Below are positions 14,387 through 33,565 of a DNA stretch of 40,045 bases, piece after piece. The translations under genes were made by a program, and so were the position numbers. The stretch lies in the IMG/VR virus record IMGVR_UViG_2778261504_000023, positions 1 through 40,045 of that record; one strand, 5' to 3'. Position 1 is the stretch's first letter. The number at the start of each line of letters is the position of its first letter. Below the pieces are notes generated by a model. It worked only from the letters and a program-made list of their open reading frames with translations, was not told where the DNA came from and searched no databases. This stretch comes from a virus. Taxonomy: Duplodnaviria; Heunggongvirae; Uroviricota; Caudoviricetes.

Positions 14387-14463
14387 TGGCGTGGCATGCA
14401 GGATTCGAACCTGCGACCAACCGCTTAGAAGGCGGTTGCTCTGTCCAACTGAGCTAATGCCAC
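14387..14463 (-). tRNA. tRNA-Arg (anticodon UCU)
   Basis: Reverse complement folds as cloverleaf: acceptor GTGGCAT/ATGCCAC, D-arm GCTC/GAGC, anticodon stem ACCGC/GCGGT with loop CTTCTAA, T-arm GCAGG-TTCGAAT-CCTGC, discriminator G, encoded CCA. Confidence 0.85.
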
Positions 14464-15111: not shown

Positions 15112-16782
15112 ATGGCGGAAACAACTAAAGAGCGATTGAACAAACAGTTCGCACAACTTGAAAGCGAGCGTCAGTCGTTCGAGCCGCACTGGCGCGAGTT
15201 GAGTGATTACATCAACCCGCGTGGTTCCCGCTTTCTGACTTCTGAGGTCAACCGTAACGATCGACGCAATACACGCATTATTGATTCGACCGGGACTATG
15301 GCGGCGCGCACTCTCGCCAGCGGCATGATGTCAGGCATCACAAGCCCCGCGCGTCCGTGGTTTCGCCTGGCTACGCCAGATCCTGAAATGATGGATTATG
15401 GCCCTGTTAAGTTGTGGCTTGAGGCGGTGCAGAACCGCATGAACGATATGTTTAATAAGTCGAATCTCTATCAGTCGCTGCCGCAGTTATACGGAAGCCT
15501 CGGCACATACAGCACTGGTGCAATGGCAGTGCTGGAGGATGACGAGGACATCATTCGCACAATGCCATTCCCGATAGGCAGTTACTACCTGGCTAACTCA
15601 CCTCGTGGCAGTGTGGACACCTGTTTTCGCAAGTTCTCTATGACTGTTCGTCAGCTTGTTCAGGAGTTCGGGCTAAATAACGTCAGCGAATCCGTAAAAA
15701 GCATGTGGGAAAGCGGCACCTACGAGAAGTGGATTGAGGTGATGCATTCGGTTTACCCGAACATTGACCGCGATACATCGAAGCTGGATAGCAAGAACAA
15801 GCCATTCAAATCGGTTTATTACGAGGTTGGCGGCGACAACGACAAGTTGTTACGTGAATCCGGATTCGATGAGTTTCCAATTATGGCTCCGCGCTGGGAA
15901 GTTAACGGAGAAGATGTTTATGGATCATCATGCCCGGGTATGCTGGCGCTTGGACCTGTTAAGGCATTGCAGCTTCTTCAGAAGCGCAAGTCGCAGTTGA
16001 TTGATAAAGCCACCAATCCGCCGATGGTTGCTCCGACTTCCCTCAAGAATCAGCGTGCCTCCCTTCTTCCTGGCGACATCACGTATATCGATCAGATTAC
16101 TGGTCAGGATGGTTTCAGGCCTGCTTATCTGGTTAACCCCAGTACAGCAGATTTGGTGGCAGACATTCAGGACACTCGTCAAATCATTAACAGCGCCTAC
16201 TTTGTCGATCTGTTCATGATGTTGCAGAACATCAATACCCGCTCGATGCCTGTTGAAGCGGTGATCGAAATGAAAGAAGAAAAACTTCTGATGTTGGGGC
16301 CGGTTCTGGAGCGTCTGAACGACGAATGTCTTAATCCTCTCATTGACCGCGCTTTCTCGATGATGGTGCGTAAAAACATGATGCCGCCACCGCCTGACGC
16401 GATGGAAGGTATGCCCCTGAAGGTCGAATACATTTCCGTCATGGCTCAGGCGCAGAAGTCTATCGGCCTGTCCAGTCTGGCGTCTACGGTCAACTTCATT
16501 GGTCAACTTGCGCAAGCGAAACCAGAAGCTCTCGACAAACTCAACGTTGATCAGGCGATCGATGCATTCGCTGATATGTCCGGTGTGTCTCCAACCGTCA
16601 TTGTTCCGCAGGAACAGGTTGAGCAGGCTCGCCAGCAACGGGCACAACAGCAACAGCAGCAACAAATGATGGCGATGGGGATGGCGGCGGCACAGGGTGC
16701 CAAGACGCTAAGCGAAGCTAAAACTTCGGATCCGAGTGTTTTGTCAGCTATGGCGAATGCAGTTAGTGGTCAGGGTGGGTAA
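15112..16782 (+). CDS. Portal protein (podovirus head-to-tail connector type)
   Basis: 556 aa; position after terminase; Gln/Ala/Met-rich C-terminus as in podoviral connectors; family assignment from memory. Confidence 0.75.
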   Translation: MAETTKERLNKQFAQLESERQSFEPHWRELSDYINPRGSRFLTSEVNRNDRRNTRIIDSTGTMAARTLASGMMSGITSPARPWFRLATPDPEMMDYGPVKLWLEAVQNRMNDMFNKSNLYQSLPQLYGSLGTYSTGAMAVLEDDEDIIRTMPFPIGSYYLANSPRGSVDTCFRKFSMTVRQLVQEFGLNNVSESVKSMWESGTYEKWIEVMHSVYPNIDRDTSKLDSKNKPFKSVYYEVGGDNDKLLRESGFDEFPIMAPRWEVNGEDVYGSSCPGMLALGPVKALQLLQKRKSQLIDKATNPPMVAPTSLKNQRASLLPGDITYIDQITGQDGFRPAYLVNPSTADLVADIQDTRQIINSAYFVDLFMMLQNINTRSMPVEAVIEMKEEKLLMLGPVLERLNDECLNPLIDRAFSMMVRKNMMPPPPDAMEGMPLKVEYISVMAQAQKSIGLSSLASTVNFIGQLAQAKPEALDKLNVDQAIDAFADMSGVSPTVIVPQEQVEQARQQRAQQQQQQQMMAMGMAAAQGAKTLSEAKTSDPSVLSAMANAVSGQGG

Positions 16783-19668: not shown

Positions 19669-19992
19669 ATGGAACTCGTAAACCTCAAAACCGGCACTGA
19701 CAGCTACCAGGATGAGAGCGGAGAAACCAGAACTCGCGATGAATACCCGTGGGGGCTGTGCATCACGCTGAATAACGACACATTGAATAAGCTGAAGGCG
19801 CAACCTAAGGGCGTCGGAACAGAAGTGATGATAACTGCAAAGGCTGTTATTCGAGGCCTGTCTGCCAGAGAAACTGACGATGGCGTTAATCGCAGCGCCG
19901 ATCTGCAGATCACTGATATGGCGATCGCTCCTGTTTCCGGGGATGTAGAAAAATCAGTGGCTGAAACTCTGTACGGTAACGGAGGTGAGTGA
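19669..19992 (+). CDS. Hypothetical protein (107 aa)
   Basis: ATG 19669 with SD AGGAG. Confidence 0.4.
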   Translation: MELVNLKTGTDSYQDESGETRTRDEYPWGLCITLNNDTLNKLKAQPKGVGTEVMITAKAVIRGLSARETDDGVNRSADLQITDMAIAPVSGDVEKSVAETLYGNGGE

Positions 19993-20597
19993 TGGCCTCT
20001 GTAGTAGAGATCTGTAATCGTGCGCTGTCCAATATTGGCAACAGCCGCAGCATTAACAGCCTGACGGAAGCCAGCAAGGAAGCGGGGGAATGTTCGCTGC
20101 ACTTTGAGGCCTGCCGTGATGCTGTGCTTTCTGATTTTGACTGGAACTTTGCTACCAAACGCGTGGCGCTTGCAGATACGAGCAATCCACCGCCTGACTG
20201 GGAATATGCGTACCAGTACCCGTCAGATTGTCTGCGCATTACTGAAATTATGCTTCCTGGTGTACGCAATCCAACAGCATCAATGCGCGTTCAGTACGAA
20301 GTTGGTGCAGACACCAACGGAACAGGAAAGTTGATCTACACAGATCAGCCTCAGGCATGGCTCAAGTATGTCTCTCGCGTTACAGATGTGAACATGTTTG
20401 ATGCCATTTTTATGGAGGCGTTGGCCTGGCGTCTTGCGGCAGCTATTAACATGGCGCTGACTGGGAATGCAGACCTCGGTACGTTTGCCCTCAATATGTA
20501 CAATCGCGTGATTCTTAGTGCTGGCTCGCATAGCCAGAATGAATCACAGGAACCACAGCCACCGGTTGATGAGTTTACCATTGCGAGGTTGTCCTGA
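19992..20597 (+). CDS. Tail adaptor protein (T7 gp11-like tail tubular protein A, putative)
   Basis: About 201 aa; N-terminal pattern NRALSNIG...INSLTE resembles T7 gp11 N-terminus (recalled); size and position match. Confidence 0.55.
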   Translation: MASVVEICNRALSNIGNSRSINSLTEASKEAGECSLHFEACRDAVLSDFDWNFATKRVALADTSNPPPDWEYAYQYPSDCLRITEIMLPGVRNPTASMRVQYEVGADTNGTGKLIYTDQPQAWLKYVSRVTDVNMFDAIFMEALAWRLAAAINMALTGNADLGTFALNMYNRVILSAGSHSQNESQEPQPPVDEFTIARLS

Positions 20598-22912
20598 TGG
20601 CTATCAGTTGGATCCAGCCCAGCTTTGCCGGTGGTGAGATTGGACCGTCGTTGTACGGTCGTATCGACATGGCGAAGTACCAGGTGGCATTGCGCAAGTG
20701 CGATAACTTTATCGTGCGGCAGTATGGCGGCGTTGAGAATCGACCTGGTACGCGTTTTGTCGGTGCCGCCAAATACCCAAATCGGAAATGCCGCCTGATC
20801 CCGTTCCAGTTCTCGACGGTTCAGACCTATGCTCTGGAGTTCGGGCACCAGTACATGCGCGTTATCAAAGATGGTGCGTTGGTGCTGAACAGCAGCAATG
20901 TTATTTATGAAATTGCCACGCCATATACTGAAGCCGATCTGTTCCGAATTAAATTTACGCAAAGCGCCGACGTGCTTACGCTGGTTCACCCGGCATACCC
21001 GCCGAAAGAGTTGCGCCGCTATGCGCATGACAACTGGCAACTGGTTGATGTGGTAACGAAGAACGGGCCATTTGAAGATATCAATATTGACGAGTCAGTG
21101 ACGGTTTATGCCAGCGCCAGCACCGGGACAATTACGTTAACGGCAAGCGCCTCTATTTTTGGCGCGGAGCAGGTAGGCAAATTGTTCTATCTGGAACAGC
21201 CTGCAGTGGATTCAGTGCCGGTATGGGAAACCAGTAAGAGTACGTCGATTGGCGATATTCGCCGTGCAGACAGTAACTACTATCGCGCCGTTACAGCAGG
21301 CAAAACAGGCACTTTGCGCCCTTCGCATACAGAAGGCACATCATGGGATGGCTGGGGCGGATCCGGTGATGATGATACTGGCATTGAGTGGGAGTATCTG
21401 CACAGTGGTTTTGGCATTGCCCGTATCACTGCTGTAAACGGCACTACTGCAACTGCCGAGGTGATTTCCTATATCCCTTCGCAGGTCGTTGGCGAGGATA
21501 ATGCCAGCTATAAATGGGCTAAATATGCCTGGAACAGTGTTAATGGTTATCCTGGCACTGTTGTTTATTATCAACAACGTCTTTACTTCGCCGCATCGAC
21601 TGCGTTCCCTCAGACTATCTGGGCCAGCCGTACTGGGGATTATAAGGATTTTGGCAAAAGCAATCCTACGCAGGATGACGACAGAATTATCTACACCTAT
21701 GCCGGGCGTCAGGTTAATGAGATCCGTCACCTGATTGATGTTGGTTCGCTGGTGGCGCTGACTTCCGGAGGTGAGTACGTCATCACTGGCGACCAGAACA
21801 AAGTGCTTACCCCATCATCATTTGCATTCAGCTCTCAGGGATCAAATGGCTCGAGCAATGTCCCACCAATTGCCGTGGCGAATATTGCTCTGTTCGTCCA
21901 GGAGAAAGGCAGTGTTGTCCGTGATCTGGCCTACTCATTCGATGTTGACGGCTATCAGGGGAACGACCTTACTATCCTTGCCAATCATCTTTTTCAGAAG
22001 CACAGCATTGTTGACTGGTGCTTCTCAATAGTCCCTTACTCCAGCGCCTTCTGCATCCGTGATGACGGTAAATTACTGGTGATGACCTATTTGCGTGATC
22101 AGCAGGTTTTTGCATGGGCACCACAATCCAGTACCGGAAAATATGAAAGCACATGCAGTATCAGCGAAGGCAATGAAGATGCGGTGTATTTCGTCGTTAA
22201 CCGAACCGTTAACGGGCAAACAGTGAGATACATCGAGCGACTGTCCAGCCGTTTATTTACCAGCGATGAAGATGCTTTCTTTGTTGATTCTGGCCTTAGC
22301 TATGATGGAAGAAATACGTCTGACAGAACGATGATCATCACTGGTGGTTCTGGCGAATGGGATTACCGCGCGGAATATACAATCAGTGTTTCTGGTGGTG
22401 CGTACTTCACCAGTAGTGATGTCGGCGCGCAACTACAGTTCCCTTATACCGGAACTGATCCTGATACTGGCGATGAGGTGTCAAAAGAATTACGTTGCGA
22501 CATTATTTCTGTAACCAGCAATACCGCTGTAGTGGTTCGTGCTAACAGGAACGTCCCGCCATTCCTCAGGAATGTGGCCACCACGAACTGGCAGATGGCG
22601 CGCCGGACATTTGGAGGCCTGTCTCATCTTGAAGGACAGACCGTAAACATCCTCTCTGATGCGAACGTGGAACCACAGAAAGTAGTTTCCGGAGGTGCCG
22701 TTACGCTGGAATCACCGGGGGCTGTAGTGCACATCGGCCTGCCAATAACTGCTGAATTCGAAACACTGGATATCAACATTAACGGACAGGAAACGCTGCT
22801 GGACAAAAAACAGGTGATCCCATCCGTTACTCTGGTTGTGAATGCCAGCCGCGGCATCTGGGCGACTACGCCCGGCGGTAAATGGTACGAATATCCACAG
22901 CGTGAATTCTAG
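20597..22912 (+). CDS. Tail nozzle protein (T7 gp12-like tail tubular protein B, putative); terminated by amber codon with in-frame continuation
   Basis: 771 aa; size and position consistent with podoviral nozzle; TAG at 22910..22912 followed by 51 sense codons in frame. Confidence 0.6.
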   Translation: MAISWIQPSFAGGEIGPSLYGRIDMAKYQVALRKCDNFIVRQYGGVENRPGTRFVGAAKYPNRKCRLIPFQFSTVQTYALEFGHQYMRVIKDGALVLNSSNVIYEIATPYTEADLFRIKFTQSADVLTLVHPAYPPKELRRYAHDNWQLVDVVTKNGPFEDINIDESVTVYASASTGTITLTASASIFGAEQVGKLFYLEQPAVDSVPVWETSKSTSIGDIRRADSNYYRAVTAGKTGTLRPSHTEGTSWDGWGGSGDDDTGIEWEYLHSGFGIARITAVNGTTATAEVISYIPSQVVGEDNASYKWAKYAWNSVNGYPGTVVYYQQRLYFAASTAFPQTIWASRTGDYKDFGKSNPTQDDDRIIYTYAGRQVNEIRHLIDVGSLVALTSGGEYVITGDQNKVLTPSSFAFSSQGSNGSSNVPPIAVANIALFVQEKGSVVRDLAYSFDVDGYQGNDLTILANHLFQKHSIVDWCFSIVPYSSAFCIRDDGKLLVMTYLRDQQVFAWAPQSSTGKYESTCSISEGNEDAVYFVVNRTVNGQTVRYIERLSSRLFTSDEDAFFVDSGLSYDGRNTSDRTMIITGGSGEWDYRAEYTISVSGGAYFTSSDVGAQLQFPYTGTDPDTGDEVSKELRCDIISVTSNTAVVVRANRNVPPFLRNVATTNWQMARRTFGGLSHLEGQTVNILSDANVEPQKVVSGGAVTLESPGAVVHIGLPITAEFETLDININGQETLLDKKQVIPSVTLVVNASRGIWATTPGGKWYEYPQREF

Positions 22913-23068
22913 TTCTACGATGATCCTGTTGATGACGCTACCGGAAAAGTAGAAGTGAAACTGGACAGTAACTGGGGCAAAAACGGACGTGTAAGAATCC
23001 GTCAGCTTGACCCGTTGCCGCTGTCTGTTCTTGCCGTTATTCCTCGCCTTACTGTTGGGGGATTCTGA
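22913..23068 (+). other. In-frame post-amber extension of nozzle gene (51 codons) ending with TGA overlapping next gene start
   Basis: FYDDPVDDATGKVEVKLDSNWGKNGRVRIRQLDPLPLSVLAVIPRLTVGGF then TGATG coupling to gene at 23068. Confidence 0.5.
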
Positions 23069-23532
23069 TGATCGATGTTCGAATTATTCCCGCCACCGAA
23101 GAGCATCTTCAGATGATTTTGCCGGATGTTCGTCAGGCTGATATTGACGAACTGTATGCGGTATCGCTGATGACTACCGAAGATGCGCTGCGTGTTGGTC
23201 TTCGCACTGCGACTATGGCCTGGTCAGGGTTCGCGAACGGAGAACTGGTAACCATGTTTGGCGTATCTCCGGCGTCAATGATCGGTGGCAATGGTACGCC
23301 CTGGCTGGTCGGAACCAGCCGTATCGAAAAATATCAGAAGACATTTCTTCGCCACTGCCGCCCTGTATTGCAGCAGATGCTGGCAGTTTATCCGCGCCTG
23401 GAAAACTATGTCGACGAGCGAAACCATGTTGCCAAAGCATGGCTGCACTGGCTTGGATTCAGGCTTGAAGAAGCCGCGCCTTATGGTGCTCTTGGTCTTA
23501 ATTTCCACAGATTTCACATGGAGAGAAAATAA
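23068..23532 (+). CDS. Internal virion protein (T7 gp13-like, putative)
   Basis: 154 aa; size and position; loose similarity to T7 gp13 C-terminal region. Confidence 0.45.
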   Translation: MIDVRIIPATEEHLQMILPDVRQADIDELYAVSLMTTEDALRVGLRTATMAWSGFANGELVTMFGVSPASMIGGNGTPWLVGTSRIEKYQKTFLRHCRPVLQQMLAVYPRLENYVDERNHVAKAWLHWLGFRLEEAAPYGALGLNFHRFHMERK

Positions 23533-24077: not shown

Positions 24078-26590
24078 TGCCAGTCGTACCAACAGTATCC
24101 GGACGTCAGGTTGAGAGCCGTGGAGTTCAGTCAGCAGGCTTGCAGACGTTTTCTCAGCCAGGTATTGGTGATGCTTTTGTTCGGGCAGGGGCAGAGACTA
24201 TTGATGTTTTTGGTCAGGCAAAACAGCGTGCCAATATCGCTCTGGCTCAGGAGGCATCTCTTAACCTCAGTCAGATAAGCAGCGATCTGCTGAATAACCC
24301 TGAAACAGGGTTGCTTAACCTGAAAGGGAAAAATGCTATTGGAAAAGGCCATGAGTATACGCAGCAGTTTGATGCTCAGGTCGAACAACTGGCTATGTCG
24401 CTGCCGGATGAACAGGCTCGTAATACTTTCATGCAGCAGGCGCAGCAGCAGCGCATTCAGTTCACTACGCAGGCCGGGCGGCACGAGATAGGGCAAATAA
24501 ACGCCTACGAAGAAGGCCAGTTTCAGGCTACGCTGCTGAACAATGGTAAAAATGCCGCAGCATTGTATGGCGACAACGCCGCATACGTATTGGCTAATAA
24601 GCAAACTTTCCAGCAAATTGAGGATTACGGCATTGCGCATGGCTGGAGCGACGAGCAAATCCAGGCCAAGAAAGTCGAGTTTAAAGAGAAGGTTGCTGAT
24701 GCCGCATTGTCCCAGTGGTCGGCAAACAATGCGACCGCATTCATCCAAAGTAATGGCGAGTTAAGTGATACTGCTGCTGGAGCTCGCCGTGCTGTAGCAG
24801 ATAGTGACTCTTCCGAGCGTGCCCGTGGCATACGCAACAATAACCCAGGAAATCTCGAATACAGCAAAACTAATCCGTGGGTAGGCCAGACCGGTGATGA
24901 TGGTCGATTTGCTAAATTCGAAACACCTGAACACGGGATTCGTGCATTAGGGCGAAACCTGATGTCGTATCAGAGGCAGGGTATTGATACCGTCAGCGAG
25001 ATAATTAATCGCTGGGCACCGCCTACTGATAAAAATGACACTATGTCGTATATCAAAGCAGTGTGCGAACAACTTGGCGTTTCTGCTGATGAGCCTCTTG
25101 ATGCATCTAATCCTGATACCCTGAAGGCGCTTTGTGCAGCCATTATCCATCATGAGAACGGTAGCCAGCCATACAGTGATCAGCAGTTAACTGCTGGTGT
25201 CAGTGCAGCACTTGGTTTATCAACAATTCCAACCAACACCAAACGCTATACCGGTAATGCAGCATTCGATGCGGCATCTCCTGAGGCGCAGGCAAGTTTT
25301 ATGCGACAGGCGGATCAACTGCGTCGGCAGCAGCAGGCTGAATATAAAACGATGATTGACAGCCAGGTTCGCGATGCGACAGCTGCGTATATGCGTGGCG
25401 TTGAATTTCCTAACCCACCTGGTGAGGCTGATTTTATTGCAGCTTATGGAGTAAGAGAAGGAAACCTGCGATATACCGAGTTCAGAAATACGCAAATCGC
25501 CGGACAGTATATAGGCTCTTTCCGCAACATGCCGACAAGCAGCATTACAGCATATGTTGAGCAATTACGCCCGGATACTGGTGAGACAGGGGAGGGGTAT
25601 GCGGCACGCGCAGCTCTTTATGACAACGTTGTTTCGGCTGCAAATCAGGTGATAAAGCAGCGGCAGTCGGATCCTGTGCAGTTCTCTCTTGCCTCCGGAC
25701 AGGCAAAGCCTATCGACATGAGCAATAAGGATAACTTTGGACAGAGCGTTGCCTTGCGTGCCGCTCAGGTCAGTGATCTTGCTAAGTCATATGGCACTCC
25801 ACTGACGTTCTTTTCCAAAGACGAGGCCAATCAGATCGGTGTTTTCTTTCGTGATGCTCCAGTTTCCCAACAGGCAGCATATCTCGATACCATCAGGCAG
25901 AGCACTGGTGGTGGGCAGGTGTATATGTCAGCACTACAGCAGATCAGTGCCAACGCTCCATCTGCTGCCGTTGCCGGGATACTGATGGATAAGCCTGGTG
26001 GTATTTTGGCAGAAAAAAACTGGTTTAATCCTGATGTTTCCGTGTCTCCTGAAACCGCAGCGCAGACAATTCTTGCTGGTGCGGCGGCTCGTAAGGGTAC
26101 TGATGACGCGAAAGGTATTCCGATGCCTAAAGATGCTGATCTTCGCCTTGAGTTTTCTGACATGGTGAAGGATGCATTTGCTGGTGATGCTCAGGGGGCA
26201 TCAATGGCATACGAGATCGCAAAGGACTATTACGCTGGTGTGATGGCGAAAAAAGGCGTGGTATCAGGCGAAATTGACAATGATATCTGGAAACAGGCTG
26301 TTAACGTAGCTACAGGTGGCGTGCATGACTATAACGGAATGGGGAATGTTCTTTTGCCGTGGGGAATGTCTGCAGAGCAATTCGATAAGCAGGTTAATCA
26401 GGTTTGGAATGAACAAGTTGTTGGCACAGGGATAAAAACACCGCCTGGTCAGTATGGTTTGCAAAGTTACGGCGATAGTCAGTACCTGGTGAAACTTGGT
26501 ACTGGTTATCTGCTGAAAGATGATGGTTCTCCCGTTGTTCTTGATCTGACTCAGAAGCGTCAGAGATTCTCCGGAAATATTCCGCAATGA
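24077..26590 (+). CDS. Internal virion / ejection protein (837 aa) with conserved RNNNPGN-containing domain
   Basis: ATG 24077 overlapping upstream stop; segment ARGIRNNNPGNLEY...GRFAKFETPEHGIRALGRNL, a motif I recall from virion-associated cell-wall-acting domains (uncertain). Confidence 0.5.
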   Translation: MPVVPTVSGRQVESRGVQSAGLQTFSQPGIGDAFVRAGAETIDVFGQAKQRANIALAQEASLNLSQISSDLLNNPETGLLNLKGKNAIGKGHEYTQQFDAQVEQLAMSLPDEQARNTFMQQAQQQRIQFTTQAGRHEIGQINAYEEGQFQATLLNNGKNAAALYGDNAAYVLANKQTFQQIEDYGIAHGWSDEQIQAKKVEFKEKVADAALSQWSANNATAFIQSNGELSDTAAGARRAVADSDSSERARGIRNNNPGNLEYSKTNPWVGQTGDDGRFAKFETPEHGIRALGRNLMSYQRQGIDTVSEIINRWAPPTDKNDTMSYIKAVCEQLGVSADEPLDASNPDTLKALCAAIIHHENGSQPYSDQQLTAGVSAALGLSTIPTNTKRYTGNAAFDAASPEAQASFMRQADQLRRQQQAEYKTMIDSQVRDATAAYMRGVEFPNPPGEADFIAAYGVREGNLRYTEFRNTQIAGQYIGSFRNMPTSSITAYVEQLRPDTGETGEGYAARAALYDNVVSAANQVIKQRQSDPVQFSLASGQAKPIDMSNKDNFGQSVALRAAQVSDLAKSYGTPLTFFSKDEANQIGVFFRDAPVSQQAAYLDTIRQSTGGGQVYMSALQQISANAPSAAVAGILMDKPGGILAEKNWFNPDVSVSPETAAQTILAGAAARKGTDDAKGIPMPKDADLRLEFSDMVKDAFAGDAQGASMAYEIAKDYYAGVMAKKGVVSGEIDNDIWKQAVNVATGGVHDYNGMGNVLLPWGMSAEQFDKQVNQVWNEQVVGTGIKTPPGQYGLQSYGDSQYLVKLGTGYLLKDDGSPVVLDLTQKRQRFSGNIPQ

Positions 26591-31064: not shown

Positions 31065-31361
31065 ATGCAAGCTATAGGATTCATTGTTTATATCGTCGTT
31101 GGTCTTTTTCAGTTGGCAGCAATTATGGCTGGGCTTGAATCATGGTGGGGATTGCACTGGATAATTGCAGCCCCCATTGCTTTCATCGTGAGCTATATTC
31201 CATTTGTTGGAGCGATTGTTGGTATGGTTGGCGCTGTGGATGTATGGCGGTGGGAGTGGTGGCAGGCTGGCCTTCTCTTCTTTGGTGGGATCATATTTGC
31301 TATTGTCTGCGGTGGAATGTCATCATTTTTCGAATGGCTATCATTCAGAAAAAGAGCGTGA
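31065..31361 (+). CDS. Hypothetical membrane protein (98 aa, about 3 TM segments)
   Basis: Highly hydrophobic; SD AGGTGA; stop overlaps GTGACATGTCAC palindrome. Confidence 0.5.
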   Translation: MQAIGFIVYIVVGLFQLAAIMAGLESWWGLHWIIAAPIAFIVSYIPFVGAIVGMVGAVDVWRWEWWQAGLLFFGGIIFAIVCGGMSSFFEWLSFRKRA

Positions 31362-33231: not shown

Positions 33232-33489
33232 TTATCTGGTTTGTTTTCGTAATTGTTCGGCACAATAGTCGAGATGTGTTTGCAGATCCTGCATAGACAT
33301 CTGTGAGCTGGTGACGTAGTTAATCAGTGCAGTCAGTTCGGCAAGTGGGCCATCGACATTAAATCCATCCTTATCGAGATCCCGGAGTAATTTCATCAAG
33401 TGCGATCCCTCCACTAGTGATCTGACGCCTCCCGGCGTGTGAATCCTTTCGGTAAATCCGTCTTCCAGTGGATAGTGATACTGCTGCAT
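33232..33489 (-). CDS. Small antirepressor-like protein (85 aa), paralogue of C-terminal domain of the Bro-N protein, LexA-box controlled
   Basis: ATG 33489 with SD GGAG; IHTPGGVRSLVEGSHLMKLLRDLDKDGFNVDGPLAELT...DLQTH aligns with IHSPSGVLGLTENSLLMNLLNQLQDDGHDVSGAAAELT...DIQTH of 32233..32919; perfect LexA box 22 bp upstream. Confidence 0.55.
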   Translation of the reverse strand: MQQYHYPLEDGFTERIHTPGGVRSLVEGSHLMKLLRDLDKDGFNVDGPLAELTALINYVTSSQMSMQDLQTHLDYCAEQLRKQTR

Positions 33490-33510
33490 CTTATCTTCTC
33501 CATGCAATAA

Positions 33511-33526
33511 CTGTATATTTATACAG
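33511..33526. promoter_or_regulatory. LexA box (SOS box)
   Basis: AACTGTATATTTATACAGTA: CTGT-N8-ACAG with AT-rich spacer, matching enterobacterial consensus TACTGTATATATATACAGTA; overlaps candidate -10 TATAAA on minus strand. Confidence 0.7.
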
Positions 33527-33565
33527 TAGCAAATAATTTGTTTGCTATCCAGCACGTTTTGCAAA

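Follow-up and report, generated by a model that had tools for sequence, protein, structure and literature searches.

In the T7 virion, the tail nozzle is a hexamer seated on a dodecameric adaptor, and the C-terminal domain of the nozzle protein gp12 forms, together with three N-terminal strands, a "platform" jelly roll that touches two adaptor subunits and makes the first gate of the channel (PMC6702177). The gp12 protein of epsilon15 has been listed as a homolog of tubular tail B (the nozzle) by Hardies et al. (PMC4819975), and a hexameric tail hub has been reported for the same phage (PMC12391199). The present analysis concerns the corresponding gene in an Escherichia coli prophage of the genus Uetakevirus (phiV10/epsilon15-like temperate podoviruses), which lies in a stretch of 40,045 nucleotides (nt), positions 1 to 40,045 of the IMG/VR record IMGVR_UViG_2778261504_000023, hereafter the window. 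The gene, a homolog of epsilon15 gp12, phiV10 p15, and T7 gp12, starts at the ATG at 20597 and, after 771 codons, is closed by a premature TAG at codon 772 (gene at 20597..22912, + strand; TAG at 22910..22912, +). Its orphaned 3′ end follows in the same frame (22913..23068, +) and consists of 51 sense codons (22913–23065, FYDDPVDDATGKVEVKLDSNWGKNGRVRIRQLDPLPLSVLAVIPRLTVGGF) and the ancestral stop TGA (23066–23068). The TAG is very probably a recent, real, and heritable nonsense mutation (GAG, Glu772, to TAG) that has hit the nozzle gene while the rest of the prophage is intact, and the prophage is likely defective as a result. An earlier note on this DNA had described the 771-codon open reading frame (ORF), its TAG, and the 51 codons that follow, with coordinates that the ORF list and the translation reproduce exactly. 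Among the explanations it offered, a nonsense mutation truncating a prophage tail nozzle is the one that stands, given the GAG of the relatives, the recency of the change, and the presence of the TAG in a second assembly.

The Ancestral Codon

At the position of the TAG there is a GAG in all eight phages that were aligned (phiV10, TL-2011b, PAS61, ZX5, EC.W1-9, Phi05_1387B, Tyrion, and epsilon15), a set that takes in phages of E. coli as well as Tyrion of Enterobacter and epsilon15 of Salmonella. Wherever a phage record annotates the homologous gene, it is 2460–2478 nt long, spans the site, and ends at a TGATG junction. Homologs uniformly run across the TAG position and stop at the TGA, which is where the earlier note had placed the true end of the gene. 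In E. coli, a 64-nt query centered on codon 772 matched 497 complete-genome records (494 genomes); no match was at 100%, and the TAG allele is therefore missing from all 497. Nor did it turn up elsewhere when species-representative genomes and IMG/VR were scanned for the exact pattern.

The same picture is found among the proteins. The best 120 representatives of 90%-identity clusters, from a collection of 5.8 billion proteins, are all 819–826 amino acids (aa) long. Glu772 is invariant in an alignment of 24 sequences, and among 95 relatives at 37%–52% identity the position holds E in 63 and D in 11, with S, A, and Q also found. Every relative examined, whether a phage, an E. coli genome, a cluster representative, or a distant relative, has a sense codon at the site. 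This distribution indicates that GAG (Glu772) is the ancestral state, and that the TAG is derived from it by a G>T transversion at 22910 and private to one E. coli clone.

Age of the Mutation

Contig NLVD01000001.1 of the NCBI assembly GCA_002510325.1 matches the window with 100% identity. The exact 771-aa product is among the gene calls of four contigs, of which one is in NCBI and the other three are Logan read assemblies. The Logan contig from SRR2085789 has the TAG and, over 21,864 nt, departs from the window at a single position, 26576 (+), where the window has a G>A change in codon 834 of the gp15 homolog (D834N) that is absent from the SRR2085789 contig. Because this contig has the TAG without D834N, the change at 26576 arose after the amber mutation. 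The occurrence of the TAG in two nonidentical assemblies makes an assembly artifact very unlikely and shows the allele to be inherited.

Sister prophages were located through an allele of the portal gene that is 3 aa shorter (see following). The one in GCA_044035555.1 has 5 differences from the window in 17,671 positions, the one in SRR12972273 has 3 in 13,734, and both have GAG at the site and an 823-aa nozzle gene. In the region covered, only two changes set the window and SRR2085789 apart from all the sisters: a synonymous C>T at 15453 and the G>T at 22910. Since so little separates the TAG-bearing prophages from their GAG sisters, the nozzle amber is very recent, which also accounts for the lack of decay in the orphan codons.

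The Nozzle Protein

The product of the gene is 99% identical to 823-aa proteins of E. coli prophages. The full-length homolog phiV10 p15 matches the "Tail Nozzle" of Cobetia marina phage Carin-1 (PDB 8CK1_A) with E = 3.2e-217, residues 2–822 aligning to 9–828, followed by the LME-1 nozzle (9EFK_M). The Carin-1 nozzle (PDB 8CK1) is the closest solved relative, with 44% identity. Searches of the literature for this PDB code, or for the assembly accession GCA_002510325.1, found nothing, and searches of Pfam and NCBIfam gave no model for the nozzle protein. The gene order gp11-gp12-gp13-gp14 is that of phiV10 and epsilon15, with the nozzle gene between those of the adaptor and of the internal virion proteins, and a 181-aa protein encoded downstream matches the Pfam family T7_gp14 (PF24072; 31.2 bits for a cut-off of 27).

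A structure was predicted with AlphaFold 2 (AF2) for an 823-aa homolog with 99% identity, using a 103-sequence alignment obtained from a search of representatives. This model has a predicted local distance difference test score (pLDDT) of 92.3 and a predicted template modeling score (pTM) of 0.88; an earlier AlphaFold model, made from a shallow alignment of relatives 82%–99% identical, had a pLDDT of 40.5 and was discarded. The predicted fold is a nozzle based on a β-propeller, as in T7 gp12. When compared with the PDB by Foldseek, it matches 8CK1 with a template modeling (TM) score of 0.92 (E = 1e-86) and T7 gp12 (6R21_a, 7BOY_s, and 9JYZ_P) with TM scores of 0.52–0.54 (E ~1e-21 to 1e-24). 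The nozzles of Kp9, HRP29, and PhiM1 and P22 gp10 are also matched, those of Kp9 and PhiM1 with E values of ~1e-21 to 1e-24. The name "nozzle" given to the protein in the earlier note is thus correct, both by the sequence match to 8CK1 and by these fold matches. The protein shares family, fold, and gene order (adaptor, nozzle, internal virion proteins) with the Carin-1 (8CK1) and T7 (6R21, 7BOY) nozzles, and differs from them in that the copy in the window lacks the last 52 residues.

The Lost C-Terminus

The openness of the frame after the TAG is by itself weak evidence of coding, as 51 codons stay open by chance with a probability of ~0.09, that is (61/64)^51. The isolated 51-aa translation matches the C-terminal end of the PHROG tail-protein families 15566 (E = 4.8e-23) and 376 (E = 1.2e-17), and it is almost the same as the corresponding C-terminal sequences in phiV10, Tyrion, and epsilon15. 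The earlier note had called this continuation coding-like, and the PHROG matches of the 51 aa alone, together with that near-identity, show that it is a genuine coding sequence. In comparisons of the 51 codons with those of Tyrion and epsilon15, the ratio of nonsynonymous to synonymous differences (pN/pS) is 0.04–0.09, with pS up to 0.6, which points to strong purifying selection on the tail of the protein. Among relatives 82%–99% identical, 29 of the 52 positions from 772 to 823 are invariant.

This conservation extends to distant proteins. A scan of 1.84 billion representatives retrieved 18,245 relatives, of which the full-length ones align as far as query residue 816–822, their own C-terminus. 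In the 103-sequence alignment, at least 48 of the 52 positions 772–823 are occupied in each protein, and none goes more than 4 aa past the end; P806 is invariant in 103 of 103, and the motif IRQxDPLPxTxLAxIPxVxxGG is kept at ~40% identity. In the AF2 model, the segment is predicted to hold three β-strands (781–788, 800–803, and 810–820) with pLDDT of ~85–95. By analogy with T7 gp12, residues 772–823 would be part of a domain equivalent to the platform. The evidence thus says that the lost segment is important to the nozzle.

These data bear on the possibility that the 771-aa protein is still functional, its last 52 residues being dispensable and the prophage fully viable. Only 6% of the protein is lost, the other genes of the structural module are intact, and the 3-aa truncation of the portal in the same lineage is evidently tolerated, as it is found on 20 contigs including one from a metagenome. 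However, a dispensable end would hardly have the low pN/pS and the 29 invariant residues just described, nor a C-terminus conserved in 103 relatives down to 37% identity. The segment is predicted with confidence as three β-strands and not as a disordered tail, and there is no shorter variant among the best 120 cluster representatives. A functional 771-aa nozzle is accordingly improbable.

Consequences of the Amber Codon

Translation should end at UAG772, leaving a nozzle protein of 771 aa that lacks its last 52 residues. By analogy with T7, the three conserved β-strands thus missing would belong to the platform domain, through which the hexameric nozzle is docked to the ring of the adaptor, and the truncation would be expected to abolish the function of the nozzle. 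An induced prophage would then fill its heads and have no functional tail able to retain the DNA, so that few or no infectious particles would be made. The genes for lysogeny, immunity, and lysis are still intact, and the nozzle amber is an early step of prophage decay.

The closest parallels are the laboratory amber (sus) mutants in tail genes of podoviruses, such as the T7 gene 12 ambers and the nonsense collection of epsilon15, which also have an in-frame UAG in an essential tail gene. The phenotype expected of these on a nonsuppressing host, filled heads without a functional tail, is the one expected of the prophage in the window. Unlike them, the TAG studied here arose spontaneously in the prophage of a natural isolate, with no selection in a suppressor host. 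Cryptic or defective prophages of E. coli offer a second parallel, in that a private inactivating mutation affects a structural gene of an integrated prophage. The prophage in the window differs in being at a very early stage, with a single clearly damaging lesion, no deletions, and orphan codons identical to those of its relatives.

A third parallel is provided by phages in which the nozzle coding sequence is naturally in two reading units, as in the split tubular tail B genes of phiRIO-1 (gp44 and gp40) and VpV262 (PMC4819975). In these phages both parts are expressed as distinct polypeptides, each from its own gene, whereas the 51-codon remnant in the window has no ATG. Its only in-frame alternative starts are GTG at 22955 and TTG at 23015, neither with a convincing ribosome-binding site (Shine-Dalgarno sequence), and a separately translated C-terminal peptide is therefore unlikely.

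Three points weigh against a recent mutation that inactivates the prophage. SRR2085789 could be a resequencing of the same or a sibling isolate, in which case two assemblies are not proof of two independent strains. The placement of residues 772–823 in a platform is an analogy drawn from the topology of T7. Finally, natural split nozzles such as gp44 and gp40 of phiRIO-1 (PMC4819975) indicate that the fold tolerates some breaks.

Other Explanations of the TAG

The TAG has one feature of a suppressor-dependent mutant, an in-frame UAG in the place of a sense codon (GAG>TAG at codon 772) in an essential gene, and one may ask whether an amber suppressor of the host, or a basal readthrough of UAG, gives enough nozzle for the six copies of each virion. 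Such a suppressor-dependent or leaky prophage would account for the perfectly intact 51 codons, which are equally expected if the mutation is very recent. A residue substituted at position 772 might also work, as distant relatives tolerate D, S, A, and Q there. Yet the only tRNA gene within the window is that of tRNA-Arg(UCU). Natural isolates rarely carry amber suppressors, and in E. coli a stop codon followed by T generally terminates translation strongly. The host presumably has no amber suppressor, and the probability of this explanation is slightly lower than that of a functional 771-aa protein. A particular form of it, a natural conditional-lethal prophage in which a suppressor tRNA or low-level readthrough throttles the output of virions while the orphan codons stay under selection, is still a little less credible.

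The TAG might also be a sequencing or assembly error, the true codon being GAG, as the earlier note had considered. Only one base at this codon sets the window apart from more than 500 relatives, and the source is a draft whole-genome shotgun assembly. This explanation is nevertheless very unlikely, since the 771-aa product is present on four contigs from two pipelines, the same TAG is in a second read assembly that differs at 26576 and is hence no copy of the deposited contig, and the site lies outside homopolymers and repeats.

The programmed readthrough or recoding site that the earlier note had put forward, which would produce short and long forms of the nozzle and would fit the in-frame stop, the conserved coding extension, and the coupled TGATG junction, has next to no probability and is rejected: the stop is conserved in none of the relatives, the sisters 3–5 single-nucleotide differences away have GAG, the 100 nt around and after the stop show no excess of RNA structure (minimum free energy of −17.4 kcal/mol; mean of the shuffled controls −20, z = +0.83), and nothing within 22500–23500 matches Rfam.

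The nonsense mutation in the nozzle gene is therefore a case of ordinary early pseudogenization, a well-known kind of prophage decay, and not a recoding signal. For annotation, the 771-aa ORF and the 156-nt "intergenic" gap that follows it are best treated as one nozzle pseudogene (20597–23068), and the prophage is better classed as probably defective although it looks complete to prophage-finding tools. With its near-identical sisters, the locus shows the first step of prophage inactivation in a clean and datable form, which could be modestly useful for studies of decay rates; beyond annotation its significance is small.

Neighboring Genes

Upstream of the nozzle gene is that of the adaptor (19992..20597, +), a homolog of epsilon15 gp11 similar to the tubular tail protein A of T7, as indicated by synteny and by the RefSeq note on epsilon15 gp11 ("HHpred: Tail tubular protein A, T7"). 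This gene is intact, with 99.5% identity to its homolog in the ML35 prophage, and its product is the presumed docking partner of the nozzle. Downstream is the homolog of epsilon15 gp13 (23068..23532, +), similar to internal virion protein A according to the annotations of phiV10 and epsilon15, whose protein is 100% identical to its ML35 counterpart. The TGA at 23066–23068 shares its A with the ATG of this gene (23068–23070), forming the TGATG junction. The gp13 homolog has its own Shine-Dalgarno–like run, GGGGGA, 6 nt upstream of the ATG, and no terminator-like site was found in the 156-nt stretch left untranslated by the amber, the effect of which on gp13 expression is probably small.

The Prophage and Its Integration Site

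The window has 96%–98% identity to phiV10, PAS61, phiv142-3, and TL-2011b across 73%–88% of its length. Its assignment to Uetakevirus follows from this genome-wide nucleotide similarity and from synteny with phiV10 or epsilon15, and gene-by-gene tblastn agrees. The prophage is integrated in the chromosome between guaA on the left and yfgI on the right. At its two ends (1–1251 and 38975–40045), the window begins exactly with the GTG start codon of the integrase and stops inside yfgH; guaA is ~190 nt to the left of the window start, and yfgI and yfgH fill the right end from ~38.9 kb. The gene for tRNA-Arg(UCU) (14387–14463, −) lies between the large terminase and portal genes and is also annotated in the ML35 prophage.

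The integrity of the genes was checked by tblastn searches of the window with two sets of proteins, from the ML35 prophage and from PAS61, a plaque-forming phage. The head, tail, internal-virion, lysis, replication, and integration genes are all intact, the only exceptions being the amber in the nozzle gene and the portal allele. A small gene downstream of gp17 (~30.9–31.4 kb) looks frameshifted; this is not a lesion, as the 1-bp indel lies upstream of the real ATG at 31065. The same is true of an apparent stop in the ORF at 33235–33612, which falls in an N-terminal extension annotated only in PAS61. In a small ORF at 2092–2389 (−), one extra A in a poly-A run (~2261–2277) relative to PAS61 throws a 99-aa hypothetical early gene out of frame. 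The sister prophage SRR12972273 has the same gene calls around this ORF, so that the change is not specific to the window.

The tailspike (33685–36312, +; 875 aa) shares only its N-terminal 165–260 residues with the tailspikes of ML35 and PAS61 (64%–67% identity). As the identity is confined to the N-terminus, the receptor-binding part has been swapped, which suggests that the prophage in the window has a different O-antigen specificity.

Other Lesions in the Lineage

In the portal gene (15112..16782, +), a CAA>TAA change at 16780–16782 removes the last three residues (QSQ) of the 559-aa protein. None of 520 complete E. coli genome records has this change, and 20 contigs, one of them an ENA metagenome scaffold, encode exactly the 556-aa portal. 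The portal of prophage CRKP-1 has 557 aa. The truncation is probably a neutral marker of the lineage. Relative to eight complete genomes, the window has 61 private substitutions between 15 and 31 kb (45 synonymous, 14 nonsynonymous, and 2 nonsense), and the predominance of synonymous changes (45 of 61) implies that the lineage was under purifying selection until very recently.

Inactivation of essential genes is also found in the relatives. The sister in GCA_044035555.1, with its intact nozzle gene, has an AAA>TAA change in codon 220 of the major capsid gene (at ~11343, corresponding to window 18454), and no 328-aa capsid gene is called there. Here an essential gene of the same prophage lineage was inactivated independently. 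The prophage of E. coli TW10722 (chromosome 3812701–3830661), one of the two closest complete-genome relatives of the structural module of the window, has an IS100 (istA/istB) within that module. Given the capsid nonsense mutation and the IS100, inactivation by point mutation and by insertion is routine in this prophage family.

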